Below are positions 3,875 to 34,142 of a stretch of 64,000 nt of DNA, piece by piece. The first letter of the stretch is position 1, and each line of letters starts with the position of its first letter. Made by a program: the position numbers and the translations under genes. Source of the DNA: Amphiscolops sp. MND2022 (Eukaryota); NCBI GenBank assembly GCA_964187785.1, contig OZ076409.1:47556001-47620000 (forward strand), written 5' to 3'. The notes under the pieces were generated by a model. It was given only the letters and a program-made list of their open reading frames with translations, did no database searches and was not told where the DNA came from.

Positions 3875-4190
3875 TCCGTTCTTCCACGAGCAAAAAGACC
3901 TTCTTAATGGTGCAATTTGTGATAAAACGAAGTGTTTTCACAAGGTTTCAACGAAATCTCAATTCTAACAACGAAATCAGCTCTCAATACAGGTTTCTTT
4001 GTTCCTTTCTAACAATTCTTTTTATTCATTTGAACTGACGATTTCATCTCGGTAAAACTTTCGTTTTCTATTCCTCTACTTTTTATTCTTTTCTATTCCT
4101 CTTCTACTATTCCTCTTCTTTTTCAACAGTGATTCATCCCACTTATCTTTCCTTTCTTGAAAGTTCAAGACCTCTTTCACCTGGCCTTCG

Positions 4191-4844
4191 TTTTTAGTCG
4201 GCGCTTCATGAAGTGAAACGCGACTATTATAGTGGCTTTTCTTTTTTTTTCAATCCACACGAACTGACCAAAATAGTTCTTCAAAAGTTCTACAAATATT
4301 ATTGCACCAAATTGCACTATTTGGTCTAGCGAACTGAACCAAACCAAAAAAGTTTTTCCTGTTTTCCCGCGTAACATACCATACCCGGCAAGACCAAAGG
4401 GTCCCCCCTTCCAATTTTTGTTGGCACTATGAGACTTGTTTTCCGAAAAAATTTTCCCCCAAAGGGTCCCCCTTCAATTTTTTGCTGTTTTGCGACAGAA
4501 TGGATGTTGGAGAATCCCAAAGGTTCCCCCCTTTCAGTTTTTTTCCGAATATAAAAATTTTTCCCCCATCAATTTTTTGATGTTTTGCGACAAAACCCCT
4601 TCAACTGCGACAAAAATGTTGACAATTTCGGAAGTGTCCCCCTTTCAGCACGCCAGGGGCTCGCGCTAGCGGTCCCCGGCGCGCCACTCGGTCCATTTTT
4701 TTGGGTATGTAATTTTTCGAAATTTTTTTTTCGTAAAATTTTCGATTTTCGAGTACTGTAAAAGAGAATACTTGACACTTGGAAGTCTTTTTGCTCTTTT
4801 TGAGCCTTGGACATGGCGCCGACTTGGGCCGGTCCCGGCTTTTT
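4191..4844 (+). mobile_element. DINE-1/HINE-like (non-autonomous Helentron-type) repeat copy
   Basis: 5' TTTTT-AGTCGGCGCT followed by a partial inverted copy (ACGCGACT). 3' GGCGCCGACT followed by a short GC hairpin (GGGCCGGTCCCGGC) and a T-run. No TSD seen. Confidence 0.65.
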
Positions 4845-5319
4845 CAAACTCCAGTTTGAGCGTTTGACCAGATTGTAGGAACTATTTCTTCACCAAGACG
4901 TGTTTTTTCCCATCTGATGGTTGAGTCTAGCCCATTCGGCAGGAGAACTGCAAGGCTCTTAGTTGCCACGTTTTGGGTGTGCCGCTCAGCAGGTATTGCA
5001 AACACTGTTGCTTTCGAAGATGTGAATTTCTTTCATATTTCGTTCCCACTGTGGTTTGCCAATAGAACACATTGTCAATACGTTTGGTATCGATTCGCTA
5101 AGCTTCAACCGTTTTTTGAACTAGCCCAAAACCCAGTGTACACTCCCTAACCAGTTGAGCCCAGATTTTCCACTTCGAACACGTATTTCATTGGGTTGAT
5201 GAAGTAACCCAACCTGAGAGGATATTGTATACGCAAGTGTCCAAGTACTCCGGAATCAGATAAAACGAAAATACTTGGATTTTGCGCTTTTCGCTGAACT
5301 TATCTTCGTGTCAGGTGGT

Positions 5320-6800
5320 ATGGCAAGATGCCGCCTGCGATAGAAACCACTACCAAGTATCCTCAGATAGGGAAAAGTCTGTGATTCCTCCAGCAGTAAG
5401 TATCGTTCTTCGTACTGTTGTGGTGCTCGTATACTATTTATGTACATTTTTTATAAACCAGTGCAACTCGCTGATTTGAGTTAAAATCTAATTTGAAATG
5501 ATTTTGACGTCCTGTATTTCAATGCAGGAAACGATCCATCTCCTGGAGGCACGCTAAAAAAGACCGGAAATCTAGCATGTTTGACGCTTGGTCCGTTCTA
5601 GTTATTATCCAAACATATGCGCTCGTTTTTGTAGCCAGACGGACTACATCTCCATTGCGTTCGTTTGCACGCGCTGCTGCTCATGTAAAATAGTATCAAG
5701 TAATATTCAGTGTATTATATATAACATGTAGTAAACCCTTGACCTGTAAGGCCTGCCGCTTTTACTCCTTGCATTTTTTGATGACTCAATGCTTTTTGTA
5801 GTTCAAGCCAACGGTCATGTCTTCATGACGTCTTTTTGATGAATAATTTTTTAATAACGTGACATTCGTCGTTAATTTTTTCATGCGTTGTACCCTCTTA
5901 TTAGCCGATCCTGTAAAGCCATAGAAACATTGAATTCAGAACACTTTCATGATACACTCAAAGTATTGTGAAACTGATCTTACTTCTACCTAATTATTTT
6001 CCATTTTAACCGAATCAATATCACTCCTTAAACAGCATTCATTATTTGTGATGCATTCTACTAGAAAACGGAAAGTTAGAGAAAAGCGCTTTCGGCAATC
6101 AGATGCAGTGTCCGACTCAGGAATTGAGAACGTAATGATTGGAAACTTTCTAGAAAACTAATTTGAGAACGAATCAGTAGACAGAACAAGCCGGGACCGG
6201 CCCAAGTCGGCGCCATATCCAAGGCTCAAAAATAGCAAGATTTTTCATCCATTTTGTCGCAAAACAGCAAAAAAATTGAAGGTGGGACCCTTTGGAGAAA
6301 TTTTTTCCGCAAAAAAAGTCTCGCAGTGCCGAAAAAAAAGAAAGGGGAGACCCTTTGGACTCGCCGGGTATGGTATGTTACGCGGGAAAAAAGTGCAAAA
6401 AAATAGTGCAATTTGGTGCAATAATATTTTGTAGAACTTTTAAGAACTATTTTGGTCAGTTCGTGTGGATTGAAAAAAAATATAATAGTCGCGTTTCACT
6501 TCATGAAGCGCCGACTAAAAACCGAAGTACGCTTGAAGTGAGATATATGAAGGAGTACTATACAAAAGTTGACGAGTCGGTGATGAAGTCTAACAGCAGA
6601 GAAAACAGTGAAAGGATAGCTGAAACAGGTAGATTACTAAACATTAGCTGAGCTCAGAATAATAATGGCATTTATCCGGTTCCGGATCGAGGGAATTTTT
6701 AAGAGGTCAATCGGACGTGATGTCAAACGACTAAGCGCACTGATTGTCGACGAGCGTATTTAAAAAGAAATTTTCTTATACTTTAGGCAGGGCAGCGACG
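5320..6800 (+). mobile_element. Decayed LTR of the A/C-related gypsy group, interrupted by a HINE-like repeat
   Basis: Starts with ...GATGCCGCCTGCGATAGAAAC, like the other LTR starts. A gag-N-like remnant (NSRENSE...) at ~6070-6185 resumes at ~6523. Boundaries approximate. Confidence 0.45.
6185..6521 (-). mobile_element. DINE-1/HINE-like repeat copy
   Basis: ACAAGCCGGGACCGGCCCAAGTCGGCGCC ... TAGTCGCGTTTCACTTCATGAAGCGCCGACTAAAA, the reverse complement of the termini of the 4191-4844 copy. Confidence 0.65.
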
Positions 6801-11361: not shown

Positions 11362-11900
11362 TGTAAGAACTACAACCTGTGGTGTCTCTCAAATCTCCTA
11401 CGGACCTTGAGTCCTTCTTCGCGATCTTTATTTTAGGCCCTGGTGTGTTTTCCCTGTTCTCTTGACCATTAGGAGACATACAGGCCTCAGTGTCCCTGTG
11501 ACCTGTGGATGACATTGAGTTAACAATACTTTGAAACTCTGGAACAACTCTCTCAGCTATTGCAGTGGTAATAGCCCTGTTTATTTGATTATAAATCATG
11601 GACATCATTGAGTCACTTTCCTGAGACAACCTTAGATTAAACTCGTTAGAGAAAGTCTCAAAGGACTGTCTGACATCATTTTGCCTCAAAGAGTCATTTT
11701 CATATATAAATTCTCTGTACTCATTTCCATGGTACGTATTTGTATTTGCGTTCTCATGGGCTGATGACTGATCAATAGCATCAGTTAGTTCTCTTTCAAT
11801 GCGATTGTTATTCTCATTTCCCAACATTACGTCTAGGTATCAAAATCGGACATCATGTCCATCTCTCTAGATTTCCTGGGTTTTACCTTTTGTCTTCTTG
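11362..11900 (-). pseudogene. LTR-encoded gag N-terminal segment (element A)
   Basis: ORF 11267..11827 (NLRLSQESDSMMSMIYNQINRAITTAIAERVVPE) is homologous to the other LTR ORFs and is open to the LTR end. Confidence 0.7.
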
Positions 11901-12866
11901 TTGAAGGGATTAGAAATTGTTACAAGAGAAAAAAAATTATCTTTGGCTTGCAAATTTTGTGTGATATTACTGAGTAACTTTAACATGTAGGATCAATCAA
12001 AACTTTGTCCCCGGGACCAATTGTCCCGGCTATAAATATTAGATTCTACATGACAACCAATATTTCAACTGTCATATTCTAAAAATAGCCTTGAGGGCTT
12101 TCTAAATATAGTAACAGCTATAAATAGCAACAGTGACATCATTATGATGTAAGCAACTTCAAAGAACATTCCCGACGGTCAGCAGACTGATGATATGGCG
12201 GGAAGCCCGTAGGCCTACAAGACTGAGCAACAGCATACATATACAAAGTAAAGCAAAATACATGCATTTCAACACTTCATAAGATCACATGTGATGTATT
12301 AGTAACGCGCTATATTTCGTCAATAAAAGGTCTTTTGGAACTAAATGTCTATTTTTTGAACAATTAATGGTTTCTCTAGTATCCAAGTAGTAGCGCTTGT
12401 TAGTTGCGCCTTTAATTTGAAAGTGAACTCCGTGTCCAGTCGACATAATAGTACTCGCTTTTTTGTTGACAGGCGGCACATGGCCGTCTAGTCCATTGAT
12501 CAAAGCACCCCGTGATGTATTGAACAAAAACACCGGTATTAGAATACTGCACTCTGATTGTCTGATAGCTTATTCGGACTCGTTGTCCAAGGCGACAGGC
12601 AAGGAAACATTTGAACGCGTTTCCTATACCCGTACGCCTTGGTGTCCAATTTACTAACAACGTATAATTAGCGCCAGTATTACGTAATACTAAATCACGT
12701 TTTAAATGATATTTTGTATTAAAATATAAGAGCTACATGACTTCTACGGTATAAATACAGTTTTCTATTTGAAAGTTCTTATTTAAGGGGATTGTGTTGG
12801 GTTGAGCCTTCTGGTAATCGTGGCAGGTAGAGTATAGATTACCATCACTGGCGGACGCCTGGGACA
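11362..12866 (-). repeat. 3' LTR of element A
   Basis: On -, starts TGTCCCAGGC right after PPT AGGGGGAG and ends ...TTCTTACA. Terminal sequence aligns with 57181-57277 (CTGGTAATC...ATTxCxTCACxGGCGGxxGCCTGxGACA) and shares CATTTGAACGCGTTTCC. Confidence 0.8.
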
Positions 12867-13615
12867 CTCCCCCTGGGATTAACATGAAGCAGCCTTCTTT
12901 CGTCCCTTCTAAGAACGCCAGTCTTCTTGCATTGAATTGCTCTGGAGATTCCCCCAAATGGCTGTTTTGTGTAGGTAATCAATTACCGCTTCGTCCTGGA
13001 TCTGTTTGACTGATTTTCCACAAATTAGGCAGTTTGTGCAGCCCATGATGTAAGAGTTGTCATCGCCGCTAGGTTCTTTAAAGTGGATACCACTTGGACA
13101 TTGCTGATTGTTATTTGTAGTTGTCTCTGCCACTGCTCTGCAGTCACCTGTTGGGTACTTGTCCACAGCGGGGGTGACAATGGTGTATCCACCATCGGGA
13201 TCAATTGGCTACAAATATTGATTGGGTGTTCGTTTCTCAATCTCGGGTCCCTTGCTACTGGCCCTCTCCCCATTCCTAAGTCAAAATATCCGGCGTTGAA
13301 CATAGGTCCGGGGATGTACGAGAGCCTGGAATTCTCCGCATAATTTTCTTCCTGCTTGCTTGAGCATGAGGGTACTGGGATGCTCTCAGAGGCTGCCGGG
13401 AGCTCCATCTGCGTTTCTACACACTGTGCTAGCATGGCCACCTTATCATCGTCGGACAAACTGTCCAGATCGTCTACTGACGCACTGCTTGCACTTTCCA
13501 TCTCGTCCTCGCTGGATATATAGATTATCCCGTCTCCAGGGGCCGCTCCTGGAAAGTCTTCTGGGTAGTACTCAGGGGACTCCAGGTCGAAGTGACTTGA
13601 CAAGAACTTGTCCAT
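12733..13615 (-). pseudogene. Accessory sense ORF3 (SIM-like IIYISSEDE, CxxCxxCGK), frameshifted, C-terminus inside LTR
   Basis: ORFs 13025..13615, 12909..13166 and 12733..12957 join by frameshifts. Homologous to 32131-32795 (B) and 40920-41945 (C). Confidence 0.75.
12867..12874 (-). promoter_or_regulatory. Polypurine tract of element A
   Basis: AGGGGGAG on - immediately 5' of the LTR TG. Confidence 0.7.
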
Positions 13616-14916
13616 AATTATATTCTTAGCAATTTTGGAAAAGATTTATCAATTTTGAGTTTTTGGTTTTGAGAAAGCAACTGATCGCCGAGAAAGACAC
13701 TGAAACAATGGCGATCTTCCCCTACGCCAACTTGCGGGAGTTTCGTTTCAGTTTCCCGGGGTTTCGCGTTTCCCCCGATGGATAAATTTTCAATAACATA
13801 ATTCCTTCTTTATAAAATCTTTTAACTAGTCGCTCTGTCTTCTTTGATAATGCCGATCATGGTCTTGCTGGCTTACATCAACTCTGTCAACGCAACGCTT
13901 CCATATTAAGAGCGTCGCTTTAAGTGTTTATTAACACTCATCTAGCACTTGAGGGTTTCAAGAGGATGAATATATGGCAGTCCGCCACACCGTCCACCAC
14001 CAATCTGATCAGCCAATAGGAATGCAGCCTAACTCCCTCCAAGTTAAAATGGCTCCTCAAGGTCGTAAATCCATATAAGGAATAATGTAAAATGACCTTG
14101 AAACTAAAAAAAAAATAATAAAATCATGAAATAATTTATAAAAAGGTAAAGTTTCGAATTAAATAAATAGATGTAGATATCGCTGGCAGAGGCTATCCAC
14201 ATAAAGGCGTAAATTGTAAATAACTTTAAATTTGACTCCAAACTGTATAAGCACGAACTCCAATTTCGACATCTTGTCACATTACCGATTCAACTTCTAA
14301 TTCTTTACATTCAATTCCGCATCGTATTATTCTTTCTTCTTATCCAGTATTTAATCACTGTCGTATATACCATCATCAGTGTTTGTTCGATAATTAGTCA
14401 ATAAGTCTTTCATTGTTTTTATTTATATTCTTCTTTACCATCATCTTCTTCTTGGGACTCCAATTGCCCTCACTCGTGTGGGTTTTCTAGGATTTTACCG
14501 GACAATCGACATCCAGTCCCTTTCTTGGCATCCCCAGCTAGCTTAAATTTTCGTTCTTCCCCCAACGAGACAGATCGTCAGTCAAATTCTGGGAACACTC
14601 TGGTTGCTCCAGACAATTGTGCCCAAATTCCAAACATCTATATTGCAGCAAATTCCTTTCACAGACTTTTTGTCTTCTTTGCAACATCTGGATTAATTCT
14701 GATTGCTTCACAGTACCAAGTAAGTTGATGTTCTTCTGAGTTCGAACAAGAATTAGGCTTGATTAGGGCTCTAATCACTTTCGTAGACTTCCTGTCCAAG
14801 TAACACAAGTGTTCACAAGTGTTCAAACGAATCTACTTCCAGAAGATTTTCTAACGCGGTAAATGGACTCTAATTCAGGAAAGTTCCCGCTTGATCTTTT
14901 CTCTTTTTATTTAGAC

Positions 14917-17900
14917 ATGTCGTCAGAGAATATAACAGAAGAGAACACCTCATAGCTTCCTAGTACAGCAGAAAACGAACAGCCATCAAATCCAGCTTTG
15001 AATGCAATTACAGCAACACAAGCTAGCAATCAAGAAGCCTCTGGAACTAGTCGTGAAGCACCACTCCCAGTCCTTCCACAGAAGAAAATGTTAGTGCCTA
15101 TGTCGAACGGACACTGCAAGAATTAGGCCAACATCCAGAGGGGCGTTTCCTTTCGGCTCCAAAAGCTGAGAAGGAAATCCAACCGTTGGCACCAGGGGTC
15201 CCAAAAGCATCTGTGTCCGATGTAGTTATCGAGGCCTTCACTAGAATGGAAAGCATCCCGGATGATGAAATGGACATCGACAAACCTGATGATGAAATGA
15301 GTGAGACAAGCCGTTTCAAGCTCAAAGCAGACTTCTTTCAAACTGACACAAGCGAGGTCGAGGACTTGTACGATAGCGTAGGCGCAGACACTACGACCAA
15401 CAAGCCTACCCTGATAGCTCCAACGGTCGTTGATCCAAATGCACCGAGCCACGAAGACCCAGGTGGGGTCCAATTGGATGATATTGCCAGTGTAGTAACG
15501 AGGGCGCGCCTCCCAAAGGACACTTCTGCTCTCACCGTCCCAGGACGAGCCTTGCTCAAAAAATACTTTTCTGAAGCACCACCAGTTCGTTTGCCCATTG
15601 CCCATCGGACATTGGCCCTCAGTGAATCTCAAGTTCACACCTTGATGAAAGTCGTCTCGGACGAGGCCGATGCTTCGTCCCTCCGTACAGTTCAGGCATT
15701 GGTCAGCGAAACTTTGAAGGCGGGAGGACGGTTGTACAGCGGAGGACTCGTCCCTAGTGGAACTCGCCCAACGCGCAGCATTTCTGAGAGTTCTGGAGAG
15801 GACCTTAGCCGAGGAGGTCACACCACGGACGATTACTCCAGTGGGGCCCTCAGCTCTTATGATGAGTTTTTCGCGAGATTTTTAGGCAAGTCAAGCTACC
15901 CCTAGTGCCCGCCAGTGATCAGCCTTCGACGTCTGTCCCGACTAGGCCAGAAGGAATAGCACTAGTCCTGGGTTCACTGCTTCTGACTGTCCGCCACTGG
16001 CTCAGTTGCGTCCGACTCCAGAGGGGCCAAGTACCCCAAGGCCAGTTTGTAAGCGGAGGAGGATGGCTGGATCCACAGGCAAAGTCATAAAGGGGGCCAA
16101 TTTTGAGGGTATCAAACGGACCAGGACCTTCGTGACCGGACCCCTTGATCCCGAACAAAACAGGCATCAGTTCTATTGCCAAATATTCAAGGCCAACATA
16201 TCAATCTTTTCGAAGGGGGCACGCGAGATTGCCAGACACTATCAGTCCGAATCACACCTTCGCAAAGATCAACGTTGAAGATTTGAACATCTACGAAGTG
16301 TCGACAAAGTCACTAGGCAAATCAGACCGTGGCAAAGGTGAAGTCCGTGGCAAAGACGGACGGGTCTTAACTGCACTAGAAATGGAGAAAGAAAAGCCAT
16401 TATTTGAGAACGCCGTTTTAGTGGACATTGGGGACAAACACCTGTTCTACAATGACTACATAGCTGGAGGTACTTCATCATTTAGTTTTGAAGAAACCAG
16501 ACTCTGCACACAGTCTTCCTTAATCGGGTACTTTGTTCCTCGAGGTGGTGACGTCCTCGTCTTGCAGGCTTTGTGGAACCAAGTGAGCATTGCGGCCAAC
16601 CACAAAGAACCTTTCTCACCTCTTGACTGGGGAGCAACAACATTGACTGTAAATATCTACTTCCTTTGAAATGTAGACTCTTAGGTACCACATTCTTTTA
16701 TTGACACAATTAGTCCCTTTTGGTTCTAGACTATCTTCCACCACGACTTCCTCTGTGGCATGAGTGACATTGCACATCACGTTAACAACTCTGGCAAGTA
16801 CTCCCTCGAATTCGAGTCTGTGGACATGCAATGCGTGGTCTCTATTCGCTTCTGGAAAGGGGACCACCTGTCCACAGTCCGTCTCTTGCGTTACCGCCTT
16901 GCTAGTGAACATGCCGCAGGAATGTTGACTGCCGTAGCCCGAATTTTCTCTTTCTTGTCAGTACAGCCACAGATAGTCAGTGTGTCAGGGTGTCCTTCCG
17001 AGCTGATTCCAGTATTGGAGCAGTCTAAGCTCTTGACCAAGGGAATACAATACCCTTTCCGATTTGCCTAAAATTATGCATCAGCGCTGGGGAAGTGTCT
17101 TCGGGGGCATCAACTTCTTTTCCCAGCTTCGTTTCCTGATCACGATCCTGGATGGCTGTCAGGACCAAGTCTGGGCCACTCAGTCGCCAGAACTCAGCAA
17201 GGTAAATATAGACTTGTCCTCCTATGGGGGGAATGACTAGATGGTCACAATTTTGTTTTGATTCTTCCGTTTTGGCAATCTCAACTTGCAAGCTGGAAAT
17301 CACGTCCACACTCGCAATCTTATCAGAGTTTCTAGCTGACTGGAAGGCCGTGCGAGATTTCATGACGCGTATTGCTCCTACACAAGAGAACCAAGGTGTA
17401 CGGCATAGGCCCCAGAGTCAGGAGTGGAACATCATCGGGGATGAATTCTTTCATTTTAAATTTGAAGTCTTTGGCCGAATTGCCCGTGATTGTTAGTATT
17501 TTCCAACTGGTATAAACAAGTACAAATGTTAGCATGTGCTCATATATAAGTAGTTCTTGAATTGTGTTAGTAGGATTGAAGGTCAATGTGTCATGCGCTG
17601 GCATAATTTAAATGGTATTGTTATCTTTACAGACATCAAGTGCTTTGAGGGCAGTCTCTCACGACGAAAGGAATCCAGTTTCGTCACATATCGGGAATTA
17701 CGGCATTTCATTCGGAAACTGTGCTACCAATCCTTACTACCCAAACATTCGCCGGGTGAATCAGATTGGGCAAGGTTGTCCGCCTTGCAAGGACAAACCC
17801 TCACACAGCTCTCCAGTCGGGATTTCCTCCATCGGCTCAAGTTGAATGAGATCTAGATGCTGCTTGTCGGATTCGTGCTTAACAAGAAATCGATGATCAA

Positions 17901-18781
17901 CAGAGCGTGCATACAGACTTTGAGGCCGCTGTAGAGTCGATCAAGGAAGAATTCGTTGTTGAAGCACGAAATTATCTGGTCTTCCTGCTCGAGCGATTTC
18001 TAGTTGACATCACCTTCAATTCTGACATGGTCAATGGCATGAGTTGTTTCGACCCTGTGGTTCTTATATCAGTGCCATACGAGCAGGCTGCTCTATAATT
18101 CTCAACACTCTACTATTCTTTTAGTCTCCGCGAGTGGATGGTCAATACTCCTGAGGTCGAGGCCCGGGACGAGTACCTCGAGTTTCTGGACTTCTTCCGC
18201 AATAAGAGGACTTCCGAGATGCCCCTGAGACCTTTACTGACATGATCGAATTGCTTTCCCCTATTCCTGAGCTGAGATCTTGCAAACATCTCTTCTTTCT
18301 TTTTCAGCTAAGCTGTCTCTGTCTGACTTCGCAACTTCCCACTTTGCCTGCTTTTAGATTTCAAGGGGTAGACAGCAGTGATCATCGTTGTCGAAAGTCC
18401 GACGTCATCCTCCCTGCCCATTCGTATCTTTCCCATGTAGTTGGGTCAGTTGCAGTGTGTACCGCCGAAGCCTGGCTGGACAAATATCGAGAACTTGAAT
18501 CTAGCTTCGCTGAAGGGAATGTTGCTGGTAACCCCTGGGTCCATATAAATAGTTTCGGTGAACTCAACCTCCAAAAGGCTCTCATTTCTGCCCGAAAGGC
18601 TTTACGAGAGAAGCCACGATCCTCAAGTCGATCTCCCGCCTCATCAGTATCCAGCACTGGGGGGCGCCCAGGCAATCGGTGTCCGAGTAAGAACAAGAAA
18701 GGAGTGAAATTTGGAACTACCTCCTTTTCTGATACGCCCGCACCTAATGAAGCCTTGCTGCCAGGAAGCAGTGAAGACTAA
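14917..18781 (+). pseudogene. Antisense spliced accessory gene: acidic/disordered N-terminus, BED-like Zn finger, hAT-transposase-like body
   Basis: ATG after TTTAG|AC. FYCQIFKANISIFSKGAREIARHYQSESH; YSLEFESVDMQCVVSIRFW; EEFVVEARNYLVFLLERF...NGMSCFDP. Intron 16649-16729 joins ORF 16145 in frame to ORF 16760. Homologs in B and C. Confidence 0.8.
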
Positions 18782-19006: not shown

Positions 19007-22000
19007 CTAGTATCTGTTTTCTTCAATAAAGTTGGGGTTGGGGTTAAGTCGAAGAACTTATTTCCCTCCTCTAAGGCTAGAAGTTTCTTCATTTTTTTCA
19101 TTTTCCAATATTCCGGGCACGGTTATATCTGCGCCTCCATTTGAAGCAATTTCCGTGTTTTCTAAATCATTAGTGACGTCTTTTTCATTTTGAGTCCCAT
19201 TAGTCGGTTCATTCAGTGGTGACGACAGGCCTCGGCTATTATCTGGCTGCGTTCGTATTTCATTCTCGTTGACGTCATCTTCGTTCATTCGTTCGTTGCA
19301 GCTTTCATTCTCGCTTGCGCTGCTGCGTTAATTCTCGATGACGTAATGGTCCAAGCTGTCTTTCTCGTTATCGGTCGGCCGGCATGCATGTGGCCACGTC
19401 AGTCCAATCTTCTTTTCTCGGTTCAAACAATTCGTATTCAAAGTCCACTTCCCATGAGATAGAGTACAAGTCGTCTTGTGGTATTACTATCTCATTGTCG
19501 GGTTGTAATTTTTCGCCATCATATTTGTCCTCTAAGGGGGCATTCGGTACAAATTTTTTATATCTAATACGATGAAGTGTTTGCGTTTTGTTTGTATTTA
19601 ATCGACGCACCATGTAATTGTCGCTGGACAGTACTTTTTTAACGACAAACGGGCCAATCCACCTGTATTCCCTGATTCGGATTTTTGATGCTTGACTATC
19701 CGGTTTAGTTTGTAGGACAAAACAGTATTCCTTGTCTCTCAGCGGAGCAGCTTTGGCCTTCCGGTCGTAATAGTTCTTGTATTTCGAATAGGACTGCATT
19801 AATTTCTTTTTGGTTTGATCAATGAGGATTTGTGTCCTCTGTTGTACTTCTTCCGCAAATTCCGTAGTTGGCAAGAAATTTTTATTGGGATTGTTTCCCA
19901 ATTTATGATCAAGGATGTTGAAGGGAATTCGGCCATGGAAGACTTTACTACGCTCACATCCAATACTGGAATGGTATGTAGTATTATAGTTGAGCACAGA
20001 CAATGGCAGGTATTTGTGCCATTGTCGTCGATATTCCCCTGAGGCCATTTTCAAATTGGTCTTCAGTGAGGCGTGCGTCCTTTCAAGCTTGCCCATTGTT
20101 TGCGGGTGCTTTGTAGTGGCGCATTTAAGTGTTATTCCCAAGATTTGAGTTGATTCAGCTATGATGGTCGATGTAAATGCGGACCTTTGTCCGTAATGTG
20201 AGTTGTCGGTAAATATGAATGTTTGTCATGATGTCTAATATCACATTGGCTACATTTGTTGCTGTCGCTTCACTTAGAAAGTAGGCAAATAGGTATCTTG
20301 ATAAGACATCAATGGCTTTCATTTTCTATCTGGTATCCGCTGCTGGTTGGTAGATTTGGTAATCAATCAATTAGCATGGCATCTTCAGGACCGAAGTCCC
20401 ATTCTGGCAAATTTACCAATTCAGGTGTAATGGTATTATTAGGGACTCTCTTGTCTCTGGCACACGTTTCACAGCCTTCGGCCCATTTCTTGACATGTTT
20501 TGCTATGCCAGGGTAGTCGTATGTTTGGTGAATTTCCTGTAGCATTTTAGAAGTGCCTGGATGTCGATGTGCCCTGCCATGTATTGCATGCATTAATTCT
20601 TTCAGCAGATGTTTGGGTAGTAAAATCTGGTGGTATTTGATTTGTTCTGTTTCATCGTAATACTGTCTTGTCACAATTTCGTCCTTGAGGACTATTCGGT
20701 CCAAATCATTCAAGTAATGTTTATATCGGATGCCCTGTTTTAGGATTTCTTCAGAGTATTCTTCGTTCTGAATTTTTGCTTTCAGCTGAAGCAAGATCGG
20801 ATCTTTGGATTGTTCTAACAGTATTTGGTTTGTTCTGCGTAGTTTCTGAGTGAAACTGGTAATTCGTCTATTACATTCTCAGAAATGGCATCGATTTGGA
20901 TGACGGTCTCCGCGACCTTGAGTCCTGCTTTTGATTGCCTTTTCTTTTCCCAAATTTGTTCTTCTGTTTCATTGTCTTCTTCGGTAAAAAACACTTGCTC
21001 TTCAGACACGCCGGCTGATTGGATATTGACTCCAATAGGTTTTGTTTCAACGTCTGCGCGTATTTTCAGGACCAACTTTTCAGTGGGATCCATTTCCATA
21101 CGGGACAGGTAGTCCGCTGCTGTATTGTTCTTGCCTGGAATATGAGCTATAGTGAAATTGAACTGAATGACAAAACCGCAAGCATTCGATAGTGGCGGTG
21201 GTATTATCTTGTGACCGATTTGTTATCCGCAAGGACAATTACTGGTTTGGGTGTTCCCCAGAGTATATGTCCGAATTCTGTGAAGGCGCATTATATGGCT
21301 AGGAATTTCTTCGCATGTATTGACATTTTAGGCTGGGAAGGAATAAAAGTTTCCGAGCCATAGGCAATAGGCGCATAGGATTTTTTGACTGAAGTATTTT
21401 TCTGGTTTGGATCGTCTTCGGTAAGAATAGCATATCCTGCTGCTATGAAGCTGGCATCTGTCATCAGGACTAGTTGTCGATTTGGCAGTGGCTGCCTCAG
21501 AGCTAGCTGGCTGCATCGATCCAAATCTCTATTGATTTCATTGAATTGTTCGACCAATTCTGTTGTTACTAAGACCTTCTTGTCCTTCTTAAGTAGTTGA
21601 AAGAAAGGAACCAGTTTTTCTGACATTCTCGTTATAGAGTTTCTGTAATAGTTGAAGAATACAAAGTATCGTTGCAAGGCTTTTTTGGATTGTGGGAATT
21701 TCGTTTTTTTCCTAGGAAAATGGTATTGCTTTCTTTTTGAGGCTTTACGCCCTCAGTGGTGATTGTGCTCCCTAGGAAGTCAATTTCAGTTGCTCCAAAA
21801 TGACATTTGTGCATGATCTATTTTGATCCTGCCTCCCTGATGCTTTCAAACGTTGCTCAGAGGTTTTTGATCAAATGTTCGGCATCGTTTGTCGCTATGC
21901 CAATATCGTCGACATATTGTGCGCACTGGTTGACCTTGATAACACGGTCCAAGTATTCTCTCATGAAACTGGAGAAGGCCAACAGGGCTCGACTGAGTCC

Positions 22001-22306
22001 TTGTGCCAATCTTCTGTAAGCGAATGTTCTGCTGGCAATGTTGAAGGCCAGCATTTCAATGGACCTTTGGTCCGCCATCTGAAGGCAGTGATACGCCTGC
22101 GAACAGTTTACGAAAAAGCTTTTTCACGGCCATGTGTTGCGCGGCGTCCGTCAGGGTACTGACTGGATGGTTGTTATTGATGTAGTCATCACAGATTAGG
22201 TTATTGATCTTCCTGAGGTCAACCAGCAGTCGTAGTTTTCCAATGGTCTTCTTTTGCGCAAAAATAGTACTGGCGTACTTTGAGAATGGTAATGTAGTTA
22301 TACCAC
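19007..22306 (-). pseudogene. pol: Gypsy pol (RT, RNase H, integrase), frameshifted
   Basis: LRLLVDLRKIN, CAQYVDDIGIA (RT). LMTDASFIAAGYAIL (RNase H). HGRAHRHPG...CETC (IN Zn finger). HPQTMGKLERTH (IN core). WIGPF (GPY/F). Confidence 0.95.
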
Positions 22307-24955
22307 GGAGCTACTACAGCTTTTCAACGAAATCAACAGAGACATTGACAAGTGCAGTCAATTGGCTTTCAAGCAGCCACTGCCGAACAAACAACTAGTC
22401 CTAATGACTAATGCTAGCTTTACAGCAGCCGGGTATGCCATTCTCGCCGGCGACCCAAATCAGAAAGACACTTCAGTCGAAAAAACACAAGTCCTATCGC
22501 ATATGGCTCTAAGGTTTCCACGCCATCACTACTCAATATTTCAATATACGCCAAAGGATTCTTAGCTATCTACTACGCATTCAAAGAATTTGGACATATC
22601 TTCTGGGGAACTCCCAAACTGATCACTATCCTTACGGACAACAAATCGGTAACTAGGTTTTTCCAGACGAAAATAAACGACTGGAACGCCTGTGACTAGA
22701 AACAATCTGGAACTCTTGTGACTACGTAATAAAATTCAACTTTGTCATAGCACATATTCCAGGGAAAAACAAAACCGCAGCCGACTACCTAACTTGCATG
22801 GAAATGGACCACAAGGAGAAACTAATCCTGAAAATACCCGAAGATATTGAAACTCAGCCCATTGAGGTAAATCTTCAATCGGCAGGTGTATCAGAAGAGG
22901 AACAAGTCTTCTTCTCTTCTTCACTGAAGACGATCACGAAACAGAAGTGCAAAATGGGAGCGTAAAAACCTAGTCGAAACAACCCAATCGACCAAGAAGT
23001 CGTAGTCAAAATTGATGCAATATCTGAAAATAAAGTTGACGAAATCACTAATTTTACCCGGAAATTACGTAGAACGAATCGAATTCTGCTTGAGCAATCC
23101 AAAGATCCTATATTAATACAACTCGAAGCCAAAAATCAGAACGAAGACTACTCTGAAGAAATTCTACAAAAAATTGTTCGATATTATCACTACTTCAACA
23201 ATTTGGACCGAATAAACCACAAGTCACCCGCTAATACTTTGATGAAACTGGGCAATCAGATATCACCAAATACTCTTACCGAAACACCTGCTAAGAGAGC
23301 TTTTACATGCGTTACATGGAACCGCTCACAAACATTCTGGCATATTCAAAATGTTGCAGGGAATTCTCCAGAAAAAACATTACCCCGGAATAGCTAATCA
23401 TGTAAAAAGATAGGTAGAAGGAGGCGAAATTTGTGCAAACTATTAACGTGTTCCAAATATCTCAATAACACCTGAACTGCAATATTTGAACGAATGGGAC
23501 CTTGAACAAGAGGACGCAATGCGAATCGACTTCTTACCGAACCTACCAAAAAGTGGAGGCAACCAAACGGTGATGACGACTATGGATGTTTTCTCAAGAA
23601 ACCTGTTTGCCTACCCGTTAGTTGAGACCACCGCCTCAAACACGGCAAAGTACCTAATCAACCTGATGACAAAACATGCATATTTGCCGACACCGCTCAT
23701 CACTGATAAAAGAACCGCATTTACGACAAAAATTTTTGCAGAAATAACGCGAAATCTTGGAATCACGCTAAAGTCGATGCCGCAAACAATTGGCAAGCTT
23801 GAGAGGACTCACGCTTCAATAAAAACGAATTTGAAAATAGCTTCAGGGGAATATCACCGCCATTGGCAAAAATACTTGCCAATTACAATACTACCTACCA
23901 TTCCAATAATGGCTGTGAGCCGAGCAAAATCTTTATGGACGAATTCCCTACAATGTCCTAGATCATAAACATGGAAATAATCCCAATAAAAATTTCTTGC
24001 CCACGACGGAATTTGCAAGAATTACAACAGCGAACGCAAATTCTCATTGATAAAACGAAGCAACTTTTTCTGCAGTTATACTTGAAATACAAAGAATTTT
24101 ATGACCGCAAAGCCAAGGCAGCCCCTCGGAACGAAAAAGAGTTTTGTTTTATTTTGCAGCCTCAAGCAGATAACCAAGGATCAAAAATACCGTTGAAAGA
24201 GTACCGTTTGATTGGTTCTTTTCGAATTGAAAAAGTGTTACCTAACGACAAATAGATTTTGCGGCGTGTAAAAACAAATAAAACACAATTACTACATCGA
24301 ATCAGACTGAATAATTTTGTCCCAAGACACCCTTAGAGGACCAATATTCCGAAGAGAAACTACAACCTGATGACGAAAAAATCGTTCCGCAAGATGACTT
24401 ATACACCATTACAAGGGAAGCCGATTTTGACTACCAAGTCTTCGAGCCGAGACAAGACCATAATCCGAATGGAGCAGCGCAAGCACCAGAGAACAATGCA
24501 ACCAGCGCAACTAGTGATTACGTCATTTATGTTAATGCAGATGACAACGCGGTAAGGCCGAGACCGGCCATCAGCCGAGACGGCATACTCTCACGAAATG
24601 CAAATGACGTCACCGAAGGAAATGACCGGAGCAATATGAATGAACACGAAGTAACGCCGCGTGCGGCCACTAGCCGAGACCACCTAATCTTACACGATGA
24701 AGATGACATCAAAGAAAGGCCGAACACAGCCACTAGCCGAGATAACCGAATTATTGGCAACATGCCTATTGACTCATGAAACGATTTAGATGATGGTATT
24801 AGTAATTCTCCTAAAAGAGGGGAGGATAATCGCGTGCCCGGAACATCGGATGATGAAAGAATGAAAACTCAAATGAAACATCTAGCTCCAGAGGAGGGAG
24901 ATACAACCTTTGGTCTAACTCCACCCCCATCTTCACTGATGAATACAGATTTCAG
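22307..24955 (+). pseudogene. pol: Gypsy pol fragment (RNase H, integrase)
   Basis: KQPLPNKQLVLMTNASFTAAGYAIL; MRIDFLPNLPKSGG...MDVFSR; ITDKRTAFT; QTIGKLERTHAS; C-terminal GGRYNL as in A. Confidence 0.9.
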
Positions 24956-25121: not shown

Positions 25122-28100
25122 CTATGTACATTTAGTCGTTAGAGCTACTTTCACGAAGTCTTGCACAGTCTTTGAGAGCTCACCTTGGGGAATATCACCA
25201 AAGTAGACTAACTTTCGAGCCTTCCACGGGGCCCAAATGAGTTTCTTCCAACAGAGGTTGACACAGAGGAAGATCGAGAAGCTGTACTGACTTCCAGGAC
25301 AGGAACCCTTGAGACCCTTGAAAGAAGCGGGCAGAGTTTTTAAAATTGAAGAACTTCCGAAGGTGTCCACATGAGACCATAGGTCTCCCGATAATAGCCC
25401 TGAGTTGAAATGTAACTCTAGTTCTTCATATTTAACCAACGCAGACTCAGAAGTACAGACTGCAATGGCAACAGGACAATTAGACAAATAAGATTGAGCA
25501 GGCAATATGACAATTGAAAGATGGCAATGTTGGCTCGAAGTATCTACATGCTGGAATTAGACGGCGGGAAGTTTTTTGTGGCTCTCAGTAATGCAAAGAC
25601 AACACAAACGATACAGGTGAAAATGTTTGAAGCAGCTACGCAGAGCTGGCATTGAAGTCAAAAGATCGAGAACATCAGGAATAGTGCCGGCTGCGTTCTT
25701 GATACCGGAATAGGCGATACTCAAGTATTCAACGAATTCGAAGTACTCGTCCCTGTAGTCGCTCAACGAGGCCTCAGACACCCAACCTTGAAGCCGGAAG
25801 CTGTCATAGAGGGCGTTAAAGCAGAAAGAGAATTGGTCTAGAGCTAGGGAAAGCAGCACGTATGGATCGAAACAAGCCATGCCGTGGACAAGATCAGCGT
25901 TGAAGTGGATGTCTTGCAACAGTGATTCCAATAGTGACACAATGTAATCGCGGGCCTTCACAAGAAAGCTCTCCTTCTCAGCTGCGTCAACCTCTTCCAA
26001 ATCAGGTGGCCCAGTATTCTTGTCGGAGTACGAGCGGCGGACCTAAGAACCTCAGGCTGCCTCGAAATCTGTTTTGAGCTTGAGCCGATGAGCAAAGTCC
26101 CGAGAGATTGTCTGGCCACAGATGAAGCAACCCAGTCCAGCTAACGTCGTCACTGATGAATTTGAGTAAATTGGCACGACAACATAGCTTTCTCACAAAT
26201 CGGCAGTACTGTCCGTAGATGAAGAAAGTAGCGTCTCGTCGACCAGCCAGGGTGCGGTCGAATTCTTTTGCATCTAAAGATGACGTGCAAACAAAGTAAT
26301 ATCAAATTTGAAGAGGTTGTCGTGGAACAATGTGGGACACTTCAGCCATAAGGCCGAAAAGGGCCTTCAGAGGAGAGAAGATCAAAGAACTCACAAAGTG
26401 TATAAAAGAAAGCAACTCAAAATCTCGAACTAGGAATTAGAGGAATTCCAGCTTGACTGTGAAGAGATCGTCCATAATGATAGTCCATTCAAGTTTCTGT
26501 GGCTGAAAAAGAAACAATTAACTTATGATGGGATTCCATAGAAATAACCGATTTACCCAAACGGAACGACTGTCGAATCGGCCCTACAAGATGAAGTTCA
26601 AGAATAAATTTTGGAATGATTACCTTCTTCTTAACTCCTTGCATCAATTGTGTGGGGGCTATCTTTATTATGTGATGCTGAATGGATTGCCACTAATCCC
26701 CATTTCTGCACAAAAAGAAGGTATCCGCTTGAGCTCTAGCTTACTGTTGTCAACAGCCTACAACGAGAAAGGGTGGATCAATACCCAAATAATTAGTGTA
26801 CATTTGTAAAAGGCCAAAGAAGTCTGCTTGAAGAAAGAGAACTTAATTAGCTAGTTTAACGAACAGGAAAGCAAACCTTGGTGAGTTCAGGGGACTGCGG
26901 AGCCCAGGGCTGGCTCAAACAACCACTCAGGAAGGCAACCAGATAGTTAATCTGAGAGAAGGTGTCTATTAGCCCACAGACGTAACAGGTCTCCAGGACG
27001 TTGGGGTGCACAAACTCCTGCAGGGAGTAGACACCGAAAATAAAGGGGTACTGGATCCCATGATCGTACAGTCTGGATGTTTCTAAAGATTGAAACAACA
27101 TTGAGTAGCAGCTGGAAATGCTGACGAGGTTGGGCTTCAACGGCACAAAGGAAAGGAGGCAAGAGATGGCTCCCAAGTAACTTCCTGGATAAGACTCATC
27201 CGACAGTGTCGGTGGAGCTCAACTCGGACGAGGGAGTCCTCTCTCCAGTATCCGATAGACATACATCTGGACATGCCCTGGTTGGTGAAGTCGATAGAGT
27301 ACATATTAGACTTAGTGAAGTGACGGGCTATGTCTTCGAGACCACGTATGAAATAAAACAAGACAAATTTATATGTGCAGTATGAAACCGGAACTGTCGA
27401 GACGGCCACTGGGGCAAACGTACTCATATAAAGAAGACAACTCACCGTGAAACTAGCCAACACTCACTCGAAAAACGAAAACAGAGCGTGATGGTTCGTG
27501 AACATGCCAACTTTGGTCCAGAGACTTTGCAGTAATCATAAATTCCCGTCTCGAGGCACGAACACTCCAATGGAGATCAGAGTGCTACTCCTCAGTTCGT
27601 CTGGGTTGGTGATGCCGCATAGACTAGCCATGTAATCATCATAAAAGGGAAAGCGATCCCCTGCATCATCAAATGGTACTTCTAGGAAGCGTGGCTTCTC
27701 CCCTTCAAGTTCTTTGGCCGTCAGGACGTATCCGTCTTTTCCTCTGACTTGTTGAGTGGTGATCCCAGTAACCCCATCAGTTTCTTGTAAGTGGACAAAT
27801 CTCCACTTCTGGTCCTTTCGAAGGTGTCCTTCAGTTTTGTAGTGCCTTAGGATCTCCCGAGCACCTATTGAGTATATAGACATATTGGTCTTGCAGAGCA
27901 TACAATAAAAATTTGTATTTATTGTGGATGGGGTCAAGGGGGGAAACGGAGGTCCTTGTCCATTCTTCATCACCTTTCCTGGCCTGCTCAGTAACTTCCG
28001 TCTCTTCCGTGGGGGCTAGGGCCAGTGTCGGCAGTTACTCCAACCCGTCCAAGAGTAGACAGTGGCTGGTAGTCAGTGGGGCTGTATCCAGTTCCTGATG

Positions 28101-31100
28101 CTGGCGTGACATTCCTAATGTCGGCCGAAGTGGTCGGCTGTCCTGCTTGTCTTTCCACAACTCTGAATAGGGGATCAGTCTCGTTGGCAGTCTCAGCCCC
28201 TGATATTGAGCCAAGGTTGTAGGGTCCTTGTCTGAATTGAAGACCCCGGTGTTGTAATCATCAGTGGTGTTCCCCCTCCATGCTGGTCTTGTCACCAAAA
28301 CTTTCAGTGTAAGTTCGGGCCGATGTGGCACAACGCTGTTGGTATCCCTCGCGCATATCTCGGGGAGCCCCTGTGTAGAATGGAGTAACAAGGACTTGAT
28401 ATGATAGGAGGAAGTCACCAACTCCTCAGCGATGGTCCTGAAAATGGCATGCATTTCTTCTTCATTAAGACAAATAGTTGGATGTCCAACTGGTAGTTTT
28501 AAGAGACGGATCTCGCTGAAATACTTCTTTGTGATTGCTTTTTCCCTTTCCAGTCAATTGTGTATCGGCCAAGGATCCCTCTCAGCGTCACTGTCTTCAG
28601 ATTCACTGTGGAAGTTGCCTTTGTACTCAGTGATGCTGCAGGACATTACAGTGTCAAAAGTGGGTTAACACGCTTTTGTGCTATCAAGTAACCGAAATCC
28701 ACTGACGCATTATTAAACATGAATTTCAATGATTTTCAATGGATTCCGCTGTAGCCTGTTTTTGATTCCACTGACATATCTAGCTAATGGACAAAAATGC
28801 GTAGCCAAAAAGTTCGCTGAAAAGTGCAGTGGAATCCACTTCGACTTACAGTGCATTCCACTTTGGCTTGCACCCACTTCCACTTTGGCGTGCAGTCGAT
28901 TCCACTTTTCAACTTTTGGAATTGACTGCAAAACGAGTGGAATTGACTGTAAGCCAAAATGGAATTCACAACACGGTGAGAAACGTTCGTAATCCACTTA
29001 AATCATGTAACATTTAAACCATGATAAATTAGTTTTGAACGCTCAAATCCTGTGAAAATGTGTTGATTATGTGAAAGCTGAATATTTTGAATGTATCTCA
29101 AACGAACACGTGAAATAACACAAGAATGAAACAAGAATAAAAATTTGAAACTTCTTCTTTCGAATTTTTCATGTTGGTTTGCTTTAATGTATCTCTCAAA
29201 CTAACACGTGGATAACCACGTTATTGGAAGACTTTCAACTTTTTTCCTTTGTCAAAGAATAGGGAAATTGGGGGTGAACAAAGATTGTATCTCAATTATA
29301 AACTGTTCCTCTGGAAATACATTTAAAATTGAAGGATTTTGGTTTGTATTCAAGTCTTTTTGTTATGTTTATTACCGTCGACTTCGGCTAATCGAATACT
29401 GGCGGGACCGGTGAAAAATATTCGATTCAGCGAAATATTCGATTAAACGAAACCATGCTAGTACACGGGATATTCTACCTTCTGAGCAGCTCGGTTTTTA
29501 TTACATTACCCCATCGCCAAACAACTTTTCCAGGAACGTGAAGATTCCCAGCCGAAATTTGGCTGATGTAATTGTCGGAACACTCCGTTTATAAAACAAT
29601 CATCTTTTCGTTGTTGTGTATTCAATTGTGCAATACTTTCGCTTGAATTTCACCTGCGATTTTGTATTTAAAAATTGATTGCCACAGATACAATTTTTTC
29701 TCAAAATACGGAAACAAAACACCGTGAATAACAAATTCAGTGAACCCTTGCAACGTCTTTCTCACCGAAATCCGGATGAGGGTTTTATTGAGAACAATAA
29801 GCTGTTTTTCATTCATCATTCAACTTGTTATTCAATTTGATCTTTTGGTATCCACCATGAAGTAATTGAAAAATGAAAACCAATTATACCTAAAGTACAC
29901 GCAAGAGCTGAGTGTGAATTTTTGTAGAGTGGTGGTAGAATTGATAAGGTCTCCGTTGCGGTCAGCTTGGAAGTATGCTTGACGGGACTGGAACTAAAAA
30001 ACGATATCCACTATGAGGTAGATGAAAAATGAAACCTGATTATACCTAAAGTACACGCAAGAGCTGTCTGTGAAATTTTGATGTCCACTATGATTCAATC
30101 GAAGAATTAAAAAATGAAGCGGTAAGGTGGTGCGAGTATCAGAATAACTTGATTGACATAATTCTATAGTAATAAATTTGAACTAAATGAAGAAATTCAG
30201 AACCTTTTTTGTTACACTTGCTGATTCTGAAAATGTTTCTCATTCGCAAAAGTGAACACGCGAAGGAAGAACTTTTCAGCACTGAAGTTCATGAACTCTG
30301 ATTCTATTTGATTGTTGATATTTTTTGAATGTTGATATTTAAAGAATTCAGTGAATTCCACTAAAAAACTGCAGTGGAGTACACTACAGCCAATGGTGGG
30401 TTCCACTGCGGCCATCGGCGGAATCCACGGCAGCGTTCAGTGGAATCCACGGCAGTGTTAAGTGGAATCCACTGCAAGATCCGAATGTTTAAGGTATTTG
30501 ATAGTGGAATCCAATGCTTTACAGCGGAATTCGCTGTGAAGAAATCTGCAAGAAAGTGGAAACGACTGCAGCGTAACAGAATTTGTAGGTGGATTACGAG
30601 GCACGCTTTCCAAAACTGCCGTCCAGCAAAACAAAATCCACTGCAAAAATTTTAGACCCATTTTTGGCACTGTAATGGATCAATAGTCATATCGGTCGAT
30701 GCAGGTGGAAAGGCTCCAACGCCCGAATTGTCAAATAGCTCCTCGACATTACTGGTATTTGCATACAGCGCTTTTGTTTCTGTGCAAGGAAAAACTTCCT
30801 TCCCGGTAGATGTCCCTGGCAGGTCTTCTCGAGAATCTTGAAGCACAGTAATAGGATCTGAGACGGATACCCTATGGAAAATGGAATTTTTGGAACAGCT
30901 GATTACTGTGGATCCAGTTGGTGGCGGGAAGGCCTTGACGGTCTCAGTTTCGAGAGGTGCCATGGAAGAGACAGTTCTCTCGATAAAAGCAGGGAAGCTC
31001 TCATCGGTGGACTTGCTACTATGTGAATCCTCTGAAGAAGGCCGATTAGGGACGGTTGGTTCTGGTATTTCTTCAAGTACTTCTCTCTCTCTCTCTTGAT

Positions 31101-32130: not shown

Positions 32131-32795
32131 TTGGAACAGCCCAAACCTAATCTTATTTACAAAATTGCGAAAAAACTTGTAAAAACTAGATACATAGTTG
32201 AGCGATTCCCACAAGACTTTCAAGGCGCCGCACCTGAAGGAATAGAAATAGTATGCCTGTCTAGCGATGAAGAAGAAGAAATGGACGACCTAAGTATTAC
32301 GTACGTCTTGGACCTGCAAGTATCATCAGAAGATAAAGAAATCGATGACGAGATTACGATGATGGCGCAGTGTGTAGAACTGGAACTATCAGCGCCCTTT
32401 TCTGTCCAAGGGCCATCAACAACCAAACCTAACAAAGGTAATTTGTTGAGAGCGGCAGTAGAATACAACACGCCTAAAAGGAAGCACAACACACGGCTAG
32501 CACTAGATTAGTCCTTCGTTTCACTACGAATAGGAAATCGCCCCAGACGCCCAGATGATCGCATTAGGAATATCCACCCAAATAAATTATGCAGTGGGAT
32601 AATTCAAATGGTGGACACTACTTTATCGCCACCCCCGAGTATAGAGGGCCTAGTTACGAATCAATTTCAGTGGAGGTCGGATATGTAGAGCCACTGCAGA
32701 CCGTAGACGCGATAATGAACCACTTCCAAGGAATGGAACTTGACGGATATGGCCCATTAGCAAACTGCTCCGATTGCGTGGTTTGCGGAAAATCC
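32131..32795 (+). pseudogene. Accessory sense ORF3 of element B, 3'-truncated
   Basis: FPQDFQGAAPEGIEIVCLSSDEEE, MMAQCVE and CSDCVVCGKS match A's YPEDFPGAAPGDGIIYISSEDE, MLAQCVE and CTNCLICGKS. Confidence 0.75.
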
Positions 32796-34142
32796 AAAAT
32801 GCGAATTTTGTCGCAAAAATGTCGCAAAATTTTGTCGAAAATGTCGCAAAAATAGCACGTTTTTGGCTATTTCTCAGCAACCACTGGTGGGAATCACTCG
32901 CGGTTTTCTGCGTTTGCAACGTTTCACTTTATACTAACAGAAAATAGGCAAGCAAAACCTGGCAGGATCCAAATAACGTCTCTCAAAAAATTTTCATGTT
33001 ACACCTTTTGCACTCTGGGAACAATATGAAAAATACGTATTTTCCCTAGGAGATTTTTGTTTTTCGGTTCCCAGATGATCATGATTGTTCTAAATGTAAC
33101 CTATTAAGGTGTATAATTTTTATTCAGGGGACTGGGGTTGTTTCAATTATTAGTTTTGATGTTATAACGCAGGTCTATGGGGTCCTCTACTCAGGTCTAT
33201 GTATATCAAAGAAAATCAAGGGTTAAAGTTTCAAGTTTTTTTGGGGGATGCTAAAAATTGTCTTGGCAGTAGTGTTTCATACTACCAGACTCGGGAACAT
33301 AGTTTTTGGGTTGATCTAAAAGCTTGGGAACAAATGCCCAAGGCTTCGCCCTCACTAATTTTGCTCTTTTAGGCCAAAATTGATGTTTTTTTTTCAACAA
33401 AAATCGCTAAATTTTTCAATGTTTCAACAATTTAGCCAAACAAATTTTTCTGTTCCCGACCTAACAGGTCTAACGGAACGTTTTTATTGTATTCACATTG
33501 GTCGTACCCTCTTCTGAGAAATTTTGGCTTTTGAGAGTAGTCAAGTTGAAAATCGAGCTATTACAGGTGTTATAGCTAGCTCGCTATATTTTTTCAAAAA
33601 ACAATCGGAATACCCAGTGGGTATTTTTGTCAGTTCTTACTAATGAGATTACGTCTGGGAATAGGCTTTTAAAGCCACAAAAACAAAACGGGAGATTGTA
33701 ACCCAGCCGATTTGCTGCAATCAATGGGGTGAGGGAAGTAGTGTTGTACAGTTCGTCTCCACTTCGTCACCGCTGATGGGGTATGGACTGTCACTCTGCT
33801 TGTTCCCCGTCCCAGTGCATTGCAAATAGACTGAAATAGAACCCTTTAAAACAAAATCCGGTTAAGCCGGATGGTTAATCTCGGTAAACAGAAACGAAGT
33901 CAAAACAGTACTTTGCCGAAAATCAGTTATTTCTCATTCCAGACCTCGGAAACATGCAGGAAACGCAGGAATTCAGCTATTAGAAAGCCTACAAGGCTTG
34001 ACTAAGGCAATAAAAATAATCTAGGACTCTCCAGAAAAAATTCCTAGATCCGGACCCTCTGGGGCCGGAAAGCGGAAGTTGCTCCTACTTGTACGCAAAA
34101 TGAAAAATATCCCTCTGTGGTCGCCGTAAAAACTATTCCAGA

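Follow-up and report, generated by a model that had tools for sequence, protein, structure and literature searches.

A 64,000-nucleotide stretch of the Amphiscolops sp. MND2022 genome (contig OZ076409.1, positions 47,556,001 to 47,620,000; hereafter the window) contains, at positions 14,917 to 18,781, the dead copy of a conserved, spliced gene that is carried antisense by a clade of Ty3/Gypsy long terminal repeat (LTR) retrotransposons. On balance, the gene seems likely to be hAT-derived, its product to be incapable of cutting DNA, and that product to bind the DNA of its own element, probably as an accessory regulator. A first-pass annotation of the window had proposed that a retrotransposon domesticated a hAT-type transposase, that the catalytic Asp was lost, and that the protein may now act as a sequence-specific DNA-binding regulator. 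Domestication by a retrotransposon and loss of the catalytic Asp are both borne out, the latter more widely than proposed. The ancestry is upheld with moderate-to-good confidence by a profile match that is collinear over the full length with one hAT subgroup, the spacing of the zinc finger and a predicted RNase H-like fold, and the regulatory role is plausible from the short repeats described below.

The gene is a regular component of the elements that carry it. Three copies (A, B and C) lie in the window, each opposite in strand to a Gypsy pol gene with Pfam matches to reverse transcriptase (RT), RNase H (RH) as well as integrase (INT). In the 1.07-Gb genome, a search with exon 1 returned 4362 candidates, of which 150 were scored, many with long open frames. 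An integrase is found on the opposite strand in 66/67 loci selected by the antisense gene, and the last exon of the antisense gene is present in all 30 loci selected by integrase, a set confined to the closest kin of copy A. Eleven whole young elements measure 12.6-16.9 kb and have LTRs that are 98-100% alike; a 5-bp target duplication is visible in eight of them. Their order is 5′ LTR, gag, pol (protease (PR)-dUTPase-RT-RH-INT), antisense gene, a sense open reading frame (ORF3) and 3′ LTR. With TG...CA LTRs, target duplications, a primer-binding site and polypurine tract, gag upstream and a PR-RT-RH-INT order, the young elements are Ty3/Gypsy LTR retrotransposons, an assignment made at that level from terminal features and domain order.

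The antisense gene is under strong purifying selection. The ratio of nonsynonymous to synonymous substitution (dN/dS) has a median of 0.057 (0.045-0.072) over the nine of 231 pairs with a dS of 0.1-1.5, pairs that are not mutually independent; for comparison, integrase gives 0.027 (22 pairs). Three deep clades of the antisense gene correspond to three clades of integrase (Spearman 0.81). These findings bear on the idea that the gene is simply a nested hAT transposon, either a passenger or a still active nuclease. Nested insertions are common in the window, as this idea would lead one to expect. However, the occurrence of the gene in every integrase-selected locus, the strong selection, the matching deep clades and the variable catalytic columns described below all speak against it. 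In addition, the cassette ends of 4/4 elements share no terminal inverted repeat, having only unshared 10-12 nt chance matches. The idea is largely refuted and is regarded as very improbable.

The coding part of the gene, parsed from exon 1 on, comprises five exons separated by up to four introns. Parsing succeeded in 29/47 loci, which fall into two clades about 24% identical. Exons 3 and 4 measure 135 and 82 nt in 29/29 of them and exon 2 measures 486 nt in 27/29; apart from two cases, every junction is GT-AG, and reading across the exons is free of stops in 26/29. A three-exon model was dropped for a phase mismatch at intron 2, which led to the 135- and 82-nt exons. Five database proteins that lack intron 1 (P0102, P0140, P0152, P0220 and P0131) are continuous across the predicted junction, and a wholly intronless clade in the same genome, with frames of 880-927 codons, is continuous across the predicted junctions. 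That both groups read straight across supports the exon model. The intronless clade (L341:3897-6536, L347, L350-L352) has lost all coding introns or never had them, and it is also without the long N-terminal tail. To lose introns, a gene held antisense would have to recombine with a spliced copy made by reverse transcription.

Copy A is a dead copy of this spliced gene and has four coding exons, intron 3 being missing in its group. Its exon 1 encodes about 400 codons of low-complexity sequence rich in Ser, Thr, Pro and Glu, a basic KRRR-type stretch, the zinc finger and a helical segment; the counterpart in young relatives is an intact 615-codon open frame. Exon 2 encodes a predicted RNase H-like set of strands and helices that lacks CxxH and the catalytic aspartates. 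The joined exon 3+4 aligns with the beginning of the hAT insertion domain, and the helical last exon aligns with the remainder of that domain and the C-terminal region. Copy A is dead: five or more frame changes and several stops interrupt it, and one acceptor is lost, positions 17273-17274 reading TG in place of AG. Three motifs, namely a zinc finger, a YSLEFE-type strand and a CFDP segment, had been reported in the same order in copies A, B and C. Placement and order hold as described for A and B, and copy C follows the same order but has FDS instead of FDP.

The protein very probably descends from a hAT transposase. The comparison, made among hAT sets, draws on a reference set of 120 metagenome loci (L180-L299) fetched with a hAT motif. 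Five of six long proteins in this set reach the PF05699 cut-off, and its subgroup is marked by a C-x2-C-x16-H-x5-H finger and the motif PHSNAxxERxFS. In hhalign, the deepest alignment of the family matches this subgroup over 555 collinear columns (probability 94.7%, expectation value (E) 5.6e-8), a match that strengthened with alignment depth (probability 83.5-94.7%, E 8e-6 to 6e-8). Removal of the finger leaves E at 1.7e-4 to 7e-4 (5.4e-4 in the deepest alignment), and exons 3-5 alone give 5e-5 to 4e-4 (6.3e-5 in the deepest alignment). Reversed-profile controls stay above 0.2 throughout and above 0.4 in the deepest alignment, and 0/107 block shuffles reach the no-finger score (42.4 vs a shuffle maximum of 27.0). 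The finger alone matches that of the hAT subgroup (93.9%, E 1.6e-7); its C-x2-C-x16-H-x5-H spacing is invariant in 17/17 and 32/32 relatives and is found in 11/13 reference hAT fingers.

Word-based homolog searches returned family members only, and a search of 1.84 billion sequences at E 0.001 gave family members in all 30 matches read from the best 150 of 1089. Against 1934 ORFs from the hAT loci of the genome, the family profile reached a best E of 0.037, with fingers only. The exact hAT-motif pattern is absent from this genome and from viral contigs, a DUF4371 search across the genome gave no match, a metagenome scan for the antisense gene family found none, and the last exon had no usable match in the ESM Atlas. 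The same genome has many DUF659-type hAT elements with long open frames (L148, L152, L167, L300-L329).

The residues on which hAT catalysis depends are not conserved in the family. Excerpts from PMC4763223 describe both Asp, CxxH and the Trp as required for cutting and hairpin formation in hAT transposases. Both Asp, CxxH and Trp are 88-100% conserved in the reference hAT set (DDE columns 21/22 and 24/24; CxxH and Trp columns 24/24, 23/25 and 21/24). Across 32 family members of full length, Asp stands in the first Asp column once and Glu 16 times, and the two candidate columns for the second hold Asp in 2/32 and 0/32. The third position, in the Glu region, has no conserved Glu (at most 5/32), and no conserved Cys/His or Trp occurs in the 32 members at the columns collinear with CxxH and the hairpin Trp, columns that were chosen partly by eye. 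The profile alignment is ambiguous near the fourth strand; since no acidic column of exon 2 reaches 85% conservation, the conclusion of catalytic loss is independent of register. The earlier claim of a lost catalytic Asp is supported, and the loss extends to both Asp, the Glu, CxxH and the Trp. In build the protein resembles a hAT transposase, yet it is not a working one.

The AlphaFold model of finger and exon 2, at a mean predicted local distance difference test (pLDDT) score of 49, predicts an RNase H-like fold for exon 2, with strands and helices in the corresponding order. In Foldseek, the best E of any match to this model is 0.002; Hermes ranks 4, 5, 9 and 10 and is among the longest alignments. 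With VIA, 93 of 998 chains, mostly RNase H-like, reach a Z of at least 5; Hermes 2bw3 gives Z 5.5 over 103 residues (root-mean-square deviation 3.4). Of the comparison with Hermes that had been suggested as a check, the RNase H-like order is recovered in prediction and a significant structure match is not.

Several results weigh against hAT descent. Pfam scans of the antisense gene proteins find no hAT, BED, DUF659, DUF4371 or PF04195 match above noise: neither of the profiles that the first-pass annotation proposed as a check, zf-BED and PF05699, gives a significant match, with zf-BED reaching a best E of 0.045 in 1/59 proteins and the remainder being weak C2H2 finger matches below cut-off. 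PDB sequence searches give no match. Exon 2 alone is not significant against the reference hAT profile, nor is the family profile against four shallow hAT sets from the same genome. When only the intronless and database proteins are used (18 sequences), the no-finger E weakens to 0.023. The reference subgroup was itself picked by a motif, for its likeness to the family. Foldseek has no match at E 0.001, the VIA scores of Z 5-6.5 are tied among many RNase H-like folds for a model of low confidence, and the last-exon model, made of helices, has no clear fold match, Hermes being unlisted there, which does not exclude it. The Pfam results, the tied structures and the silence of exon 2 would be expected if the protein were not hAT-derived, with a U1/matrin-like C2H2 finger joined to an RNase H-like domain from another source, such as a host gene or another DDE superfamily, and a hAT likeness that is chance or very remote. 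This alternative must nevertheless account for a collinear match that follows the hAT order over about 550 columns and stays significant when the finger is removed or when exons 3-5 are taken by themselves, and for a finger spacing identical to that of hAT; an ESM Atlas pointer to DUF659 (0.76) adds a lead only. On comparisons made with hAT sets, it is judged improbable.

The gene has behaved as an exchangeable unit. At the tips of the tree, the antisense gene is swapped as a cassette among near-identical backbones. For instance, L031 and L121 have integrases that are 98% identical and cargo that is 56% identical, and two swapped elements are 93-96% identical over all but the segment between the pol stop and a point about 400 bp ahead of exon 1. 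Copy A joins the LTR end of one family type (11363-12866) with the cargo of another (14917-18781), a mismatch which is a further sign of cassette exchange. Several divergent cassettes kept behind near-identical integrases are what would be expected of a swappable specificity module, and a hAT-like DNA-binding architecture without catalysis would suit an integration tether, whose finger would bind host DNA or chromatin and recruit integrase so that the cassettes set target preference. Yet eight target duplications have no common motif, and the candidate-site repeats are located within the element. A tether of the same origin is considered unlikely.

These repeats are the evidence that favours, in part, binding to the element's own DNA. 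In 20/20 clade-C loci the heptamer CCGCATA is present at 4-18 copies per 10 kb, where shuffling gives about 1 and other loci have 0.45, and in the clade of copy C it clusters in the LTR, the putative promoter region and intron 4. A related word, CAGCATA, occurs 14-29 times in three families whose finger loop is a different one, LKTKG. GTGGAAT-type short repeats lie upstream of copy B (window 28890-29000), with 9 copies of AGTGGAAT in element B; they are possibly the counterpart of the clade-C motif. Hermes offers a precedent, as its BED fingers are described in parts of PMC10368747 as binding short subterminal repeats in the transposon ends. The parts retained by selection are the finger, the basic stretch before it and the fold. 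CCAAT, TATA-like and donor-like words stand in the conserved non-coding DNA that separates ORF3 from the antisense gene, and they weakly suggest this DNA as the likely promoter region of the gene.

The preferred explanation, a non-cutting hAT derivative that binds the DNA of its element, can be set out as a series of steps. A hAT gene would once have landed backwards downstream of pol. Because the gene is held backwards, its introns would stay unspliced in the genomic RNA and be copied with each round of retrotransposition. It would be transcribed from its own putative promoter beside ORF3, and the protein would enter the nucleus and attach to short repeats, located in the LTR and in non-coding DNA inside the element, much as subterminal repeats are bound by the BED fingers of hAT transposases. 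The long, acidic, low-complexity N-terminus may then promote transcription of the element or protect it against silencing. The favoured role is positive regulation or anti-silencing, given how young and abundant the families are, and given a long N-terminus that is acidic and looks disordered.

The same youth and abundance count against the reverse role, in which a protein of the same origin would limit or compete, repressing its own or rival elements or resident hATs through end binding or multimer poisoning, or in which the antisense RNA would itself regulate. Placement antisense over the 3′ end would fit such a factor, as would a genome with many hATs (at least 150 PF05699 and 139 DUF659 matches), and antisense RNA regulation is discussed for plant elements in excerpts from PMC7264820. 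The dN/dS of 0.06 shows selection on protein and not on RNA alone, and, as a weak point, the closest hAT subgroup was not found in the genome with one exact pattern. A self-limiting factor is rather improbable.

A more specific proposal is advanced tentatively. The disarmed hAT would be a spliced, antisense, exchangeable specificity module which recognises repeats in the element's LTR, promoter and intron, with finger and repeat changing together and cassettes being traded between families. If true, a class I element would regulate itself or choose its targets by way of a recognition system from class II. Some of the evidence counts against both this proposal and the preferred explanation: the motif was found after the fact, the clade of copy A and the intronless clade lack it, and neither repeat occurs in 2/5 further clade-C-like loci. 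Cassettes that are 56% alike also sit in backbones with 93% identical LTRs, so tight co-evolution of protein and LTR is not seen.

Table 1. Coordinates of the antisense gene copies and their host elements (window positions).
Feature	Position	Strand	Basis or remark
Element A 3′ LTR (TG...CA)	11363-12866	-	Only LTR kept by element A
Element A polypurine tract	12867-12877		Next to 3′ LTR
Element A ORF3 remnant	12781-13636	-	Sense-strand ORF, no Pfam family
Conserved non-coding stretch, ORF3 to antisense gene	13898-14460	.	73% identical to young copy
Copy A ATG / stop	14917 / stop ends 18781	+	Sequence
Copy A coding exon 1	14917-16648	+	Stops, three frame changes
Copy A zinc finger, C-x2-C-x16-H-x5-H	16177-16257	+	Second Cys is Phe in copy A
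Copy A exon 2	16730-17201	+	472 nt vs 486 nt in intact relatives
Copy A YSLEFE motif	16799	+	Sequence
Copy A exon 3+4	17275-17491	+	217 nt (135+82); an intron splits 135/82 in other families
Copy A last exon	17633-18781	+	Two frame changes, stops; holds CFDP
Copy A CFDP	18045-18056	+	In last exon
Element A pol (RT part, RNase H, integrase)	19010-22301	-	Broken, truncated within RT at start of element B
Element B pol	22302-24952	+	Pfam
Copy B of antisense gene	25191-28541	-	YSIDFT at 27301, CFDP near 25870
Element B ORF3 remnant	32155-32840	+	Sequence
Element C LTR pieces	39515-40970 and 52060-53316		Two pieces
Copy C of antisense gene	43879-47480	+	Second clade; finger near 44780, CSLSYE at 45367, FDS
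Element C pol	47572-50673	-	Pfam

The host elements are set out in Table 1. Element A retains only its 3′ LTR and polypurine tract among terminal features. Elements A and B are both cut within pol and abut head to head at 22301/22302 with zero spacer. In tblastn, copies A and B of the antisense gene show 31-56% similarity in 13 pieces (lowest E 1e-32), well above chance. ORF3 stands back to back with the antisense gene and matches no Pfam family. In young copies it has 290-370 codons, an acidic N-terminus and a CxxC near its end, and continues into the LTR (L122:368-1252); further ORF3 stretches in the window are the remnant of element B and 40922-42029 (minus strand). At the other end, gag begins inside the LTR, its first 185 or so codons being repeated in the 3′ LTR (window 11363-11913, minus strand; L033:8173-8886). 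In L044, the dUTPase lies between protease and RT in pol (L044:1687-6786), and L043-L044 (G000:C2:68144346-68155145) contains a 5.4-kb internal tandem duplication, 99.7% identical, that takes in the integrase together with the final exons of the antisense gene. Elsewhere in the window, MITE-like inverted-repeat elements and palindromes unrelated to the gene lie at 4186-6527, 53497-53727 and 54073-54203.

Antisense extra genes are already known in plant Gypsy elements. Excerpts from PMC7264820 and PMC11963269 describe antisense ORFs between pol and the 3′ LTR of Ty3/Gypsy elements, including TRP28/PF04195 of Retand, gene23 of maize Grande and that of rice RIRE2. According to the excerpted text of PMC7264820, their origin and function are unknown and they have no similarity to other transposable elements. 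As far as these excerpts go, the plant ORFs resemble the present gene in position, orientation, presence in nearly all copies and pol-like conservation, and an own promoter and a nuclear DNA-binding role have been proposed for them. PF04195, the domain of the TRP28 type, has no match in the present gene. The present gene also has up to four coding-region introns, whereas the word "intron" does not occur in the available portion of PMC11963269, and it combines a traceable, full-length hAT-like architecture with a non-plant-type element (PR-dUTPase-RT-RH-INT). For the present gene a probable origin, in a hAT transposase, can be traced. A literature search that did not extend to subscription journals or Repbase turned up no account of an LTR element carrying a spliced, disarmed hAT gene.

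This origin matters in several respects. The antisense extra genes found in LTR retrotransposons have long been a puzzle (PMC7264820, in the sections available), and here one can probably be traced to a transposase from the opposite class. From what survives, a function open to test can be predicted, through a finger and a candidate 7-base site. By carrying a gene backwards, a retrotransposon appears able to hold and select a multi-intron gene over the long term, and the same gene appears to have shed its introns in some branches and has been exchanged as a cassette.

Accessory genes have been traded between element classes before. The Plant Mobile Domain is common to Gypsy elements, MULEs and host silencing genes, and an anti-silencing role has been suggested for it, as read from part of PMC5418596; like the present gene it is an accessory gene moved between classes, but as described there it is not a transposase body. 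Rotifer LTR elements have extra ORF3s and a dUTPase, and the word "transposase" does not occur in the available part of PMC5408684; as far as that part goes, these ORF3s also differ in not being a transposase body. A dUTPase between PR and RT is reported for rotifer and planarian elements alike in excerpts from PMC5408684 and PMC6431247.

The hAT transposases themselves, represented by Hermes, Kat1 and the L180-L299 subgroup, share with the present protein, as far as profile alignment shows, the succession of finger, helical segment, RNase H strands, helical insertion and C-terminal region (PMC10368747 and PMC4763223, both in excerpt), together with finger spacing and the predicted RNase H-like fold. 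The present protein differs from them in having no conserved DDE, CxxH or hairpin Trp and no terminal inverted repeats, in some 65 additional residues beyond the finger, in a long N-terminus of low complexity, and in that its gene moves only within a retrotransposon. Hosts have also domesticated hAT transposases, as in the ZBED family and DAYSLEEPER, which are reused as DNA-binding regulators, often without catalysis. The gene described here differs from these in that its domesticator is another transposon, in which it is kept in many copies and exchanged between families.

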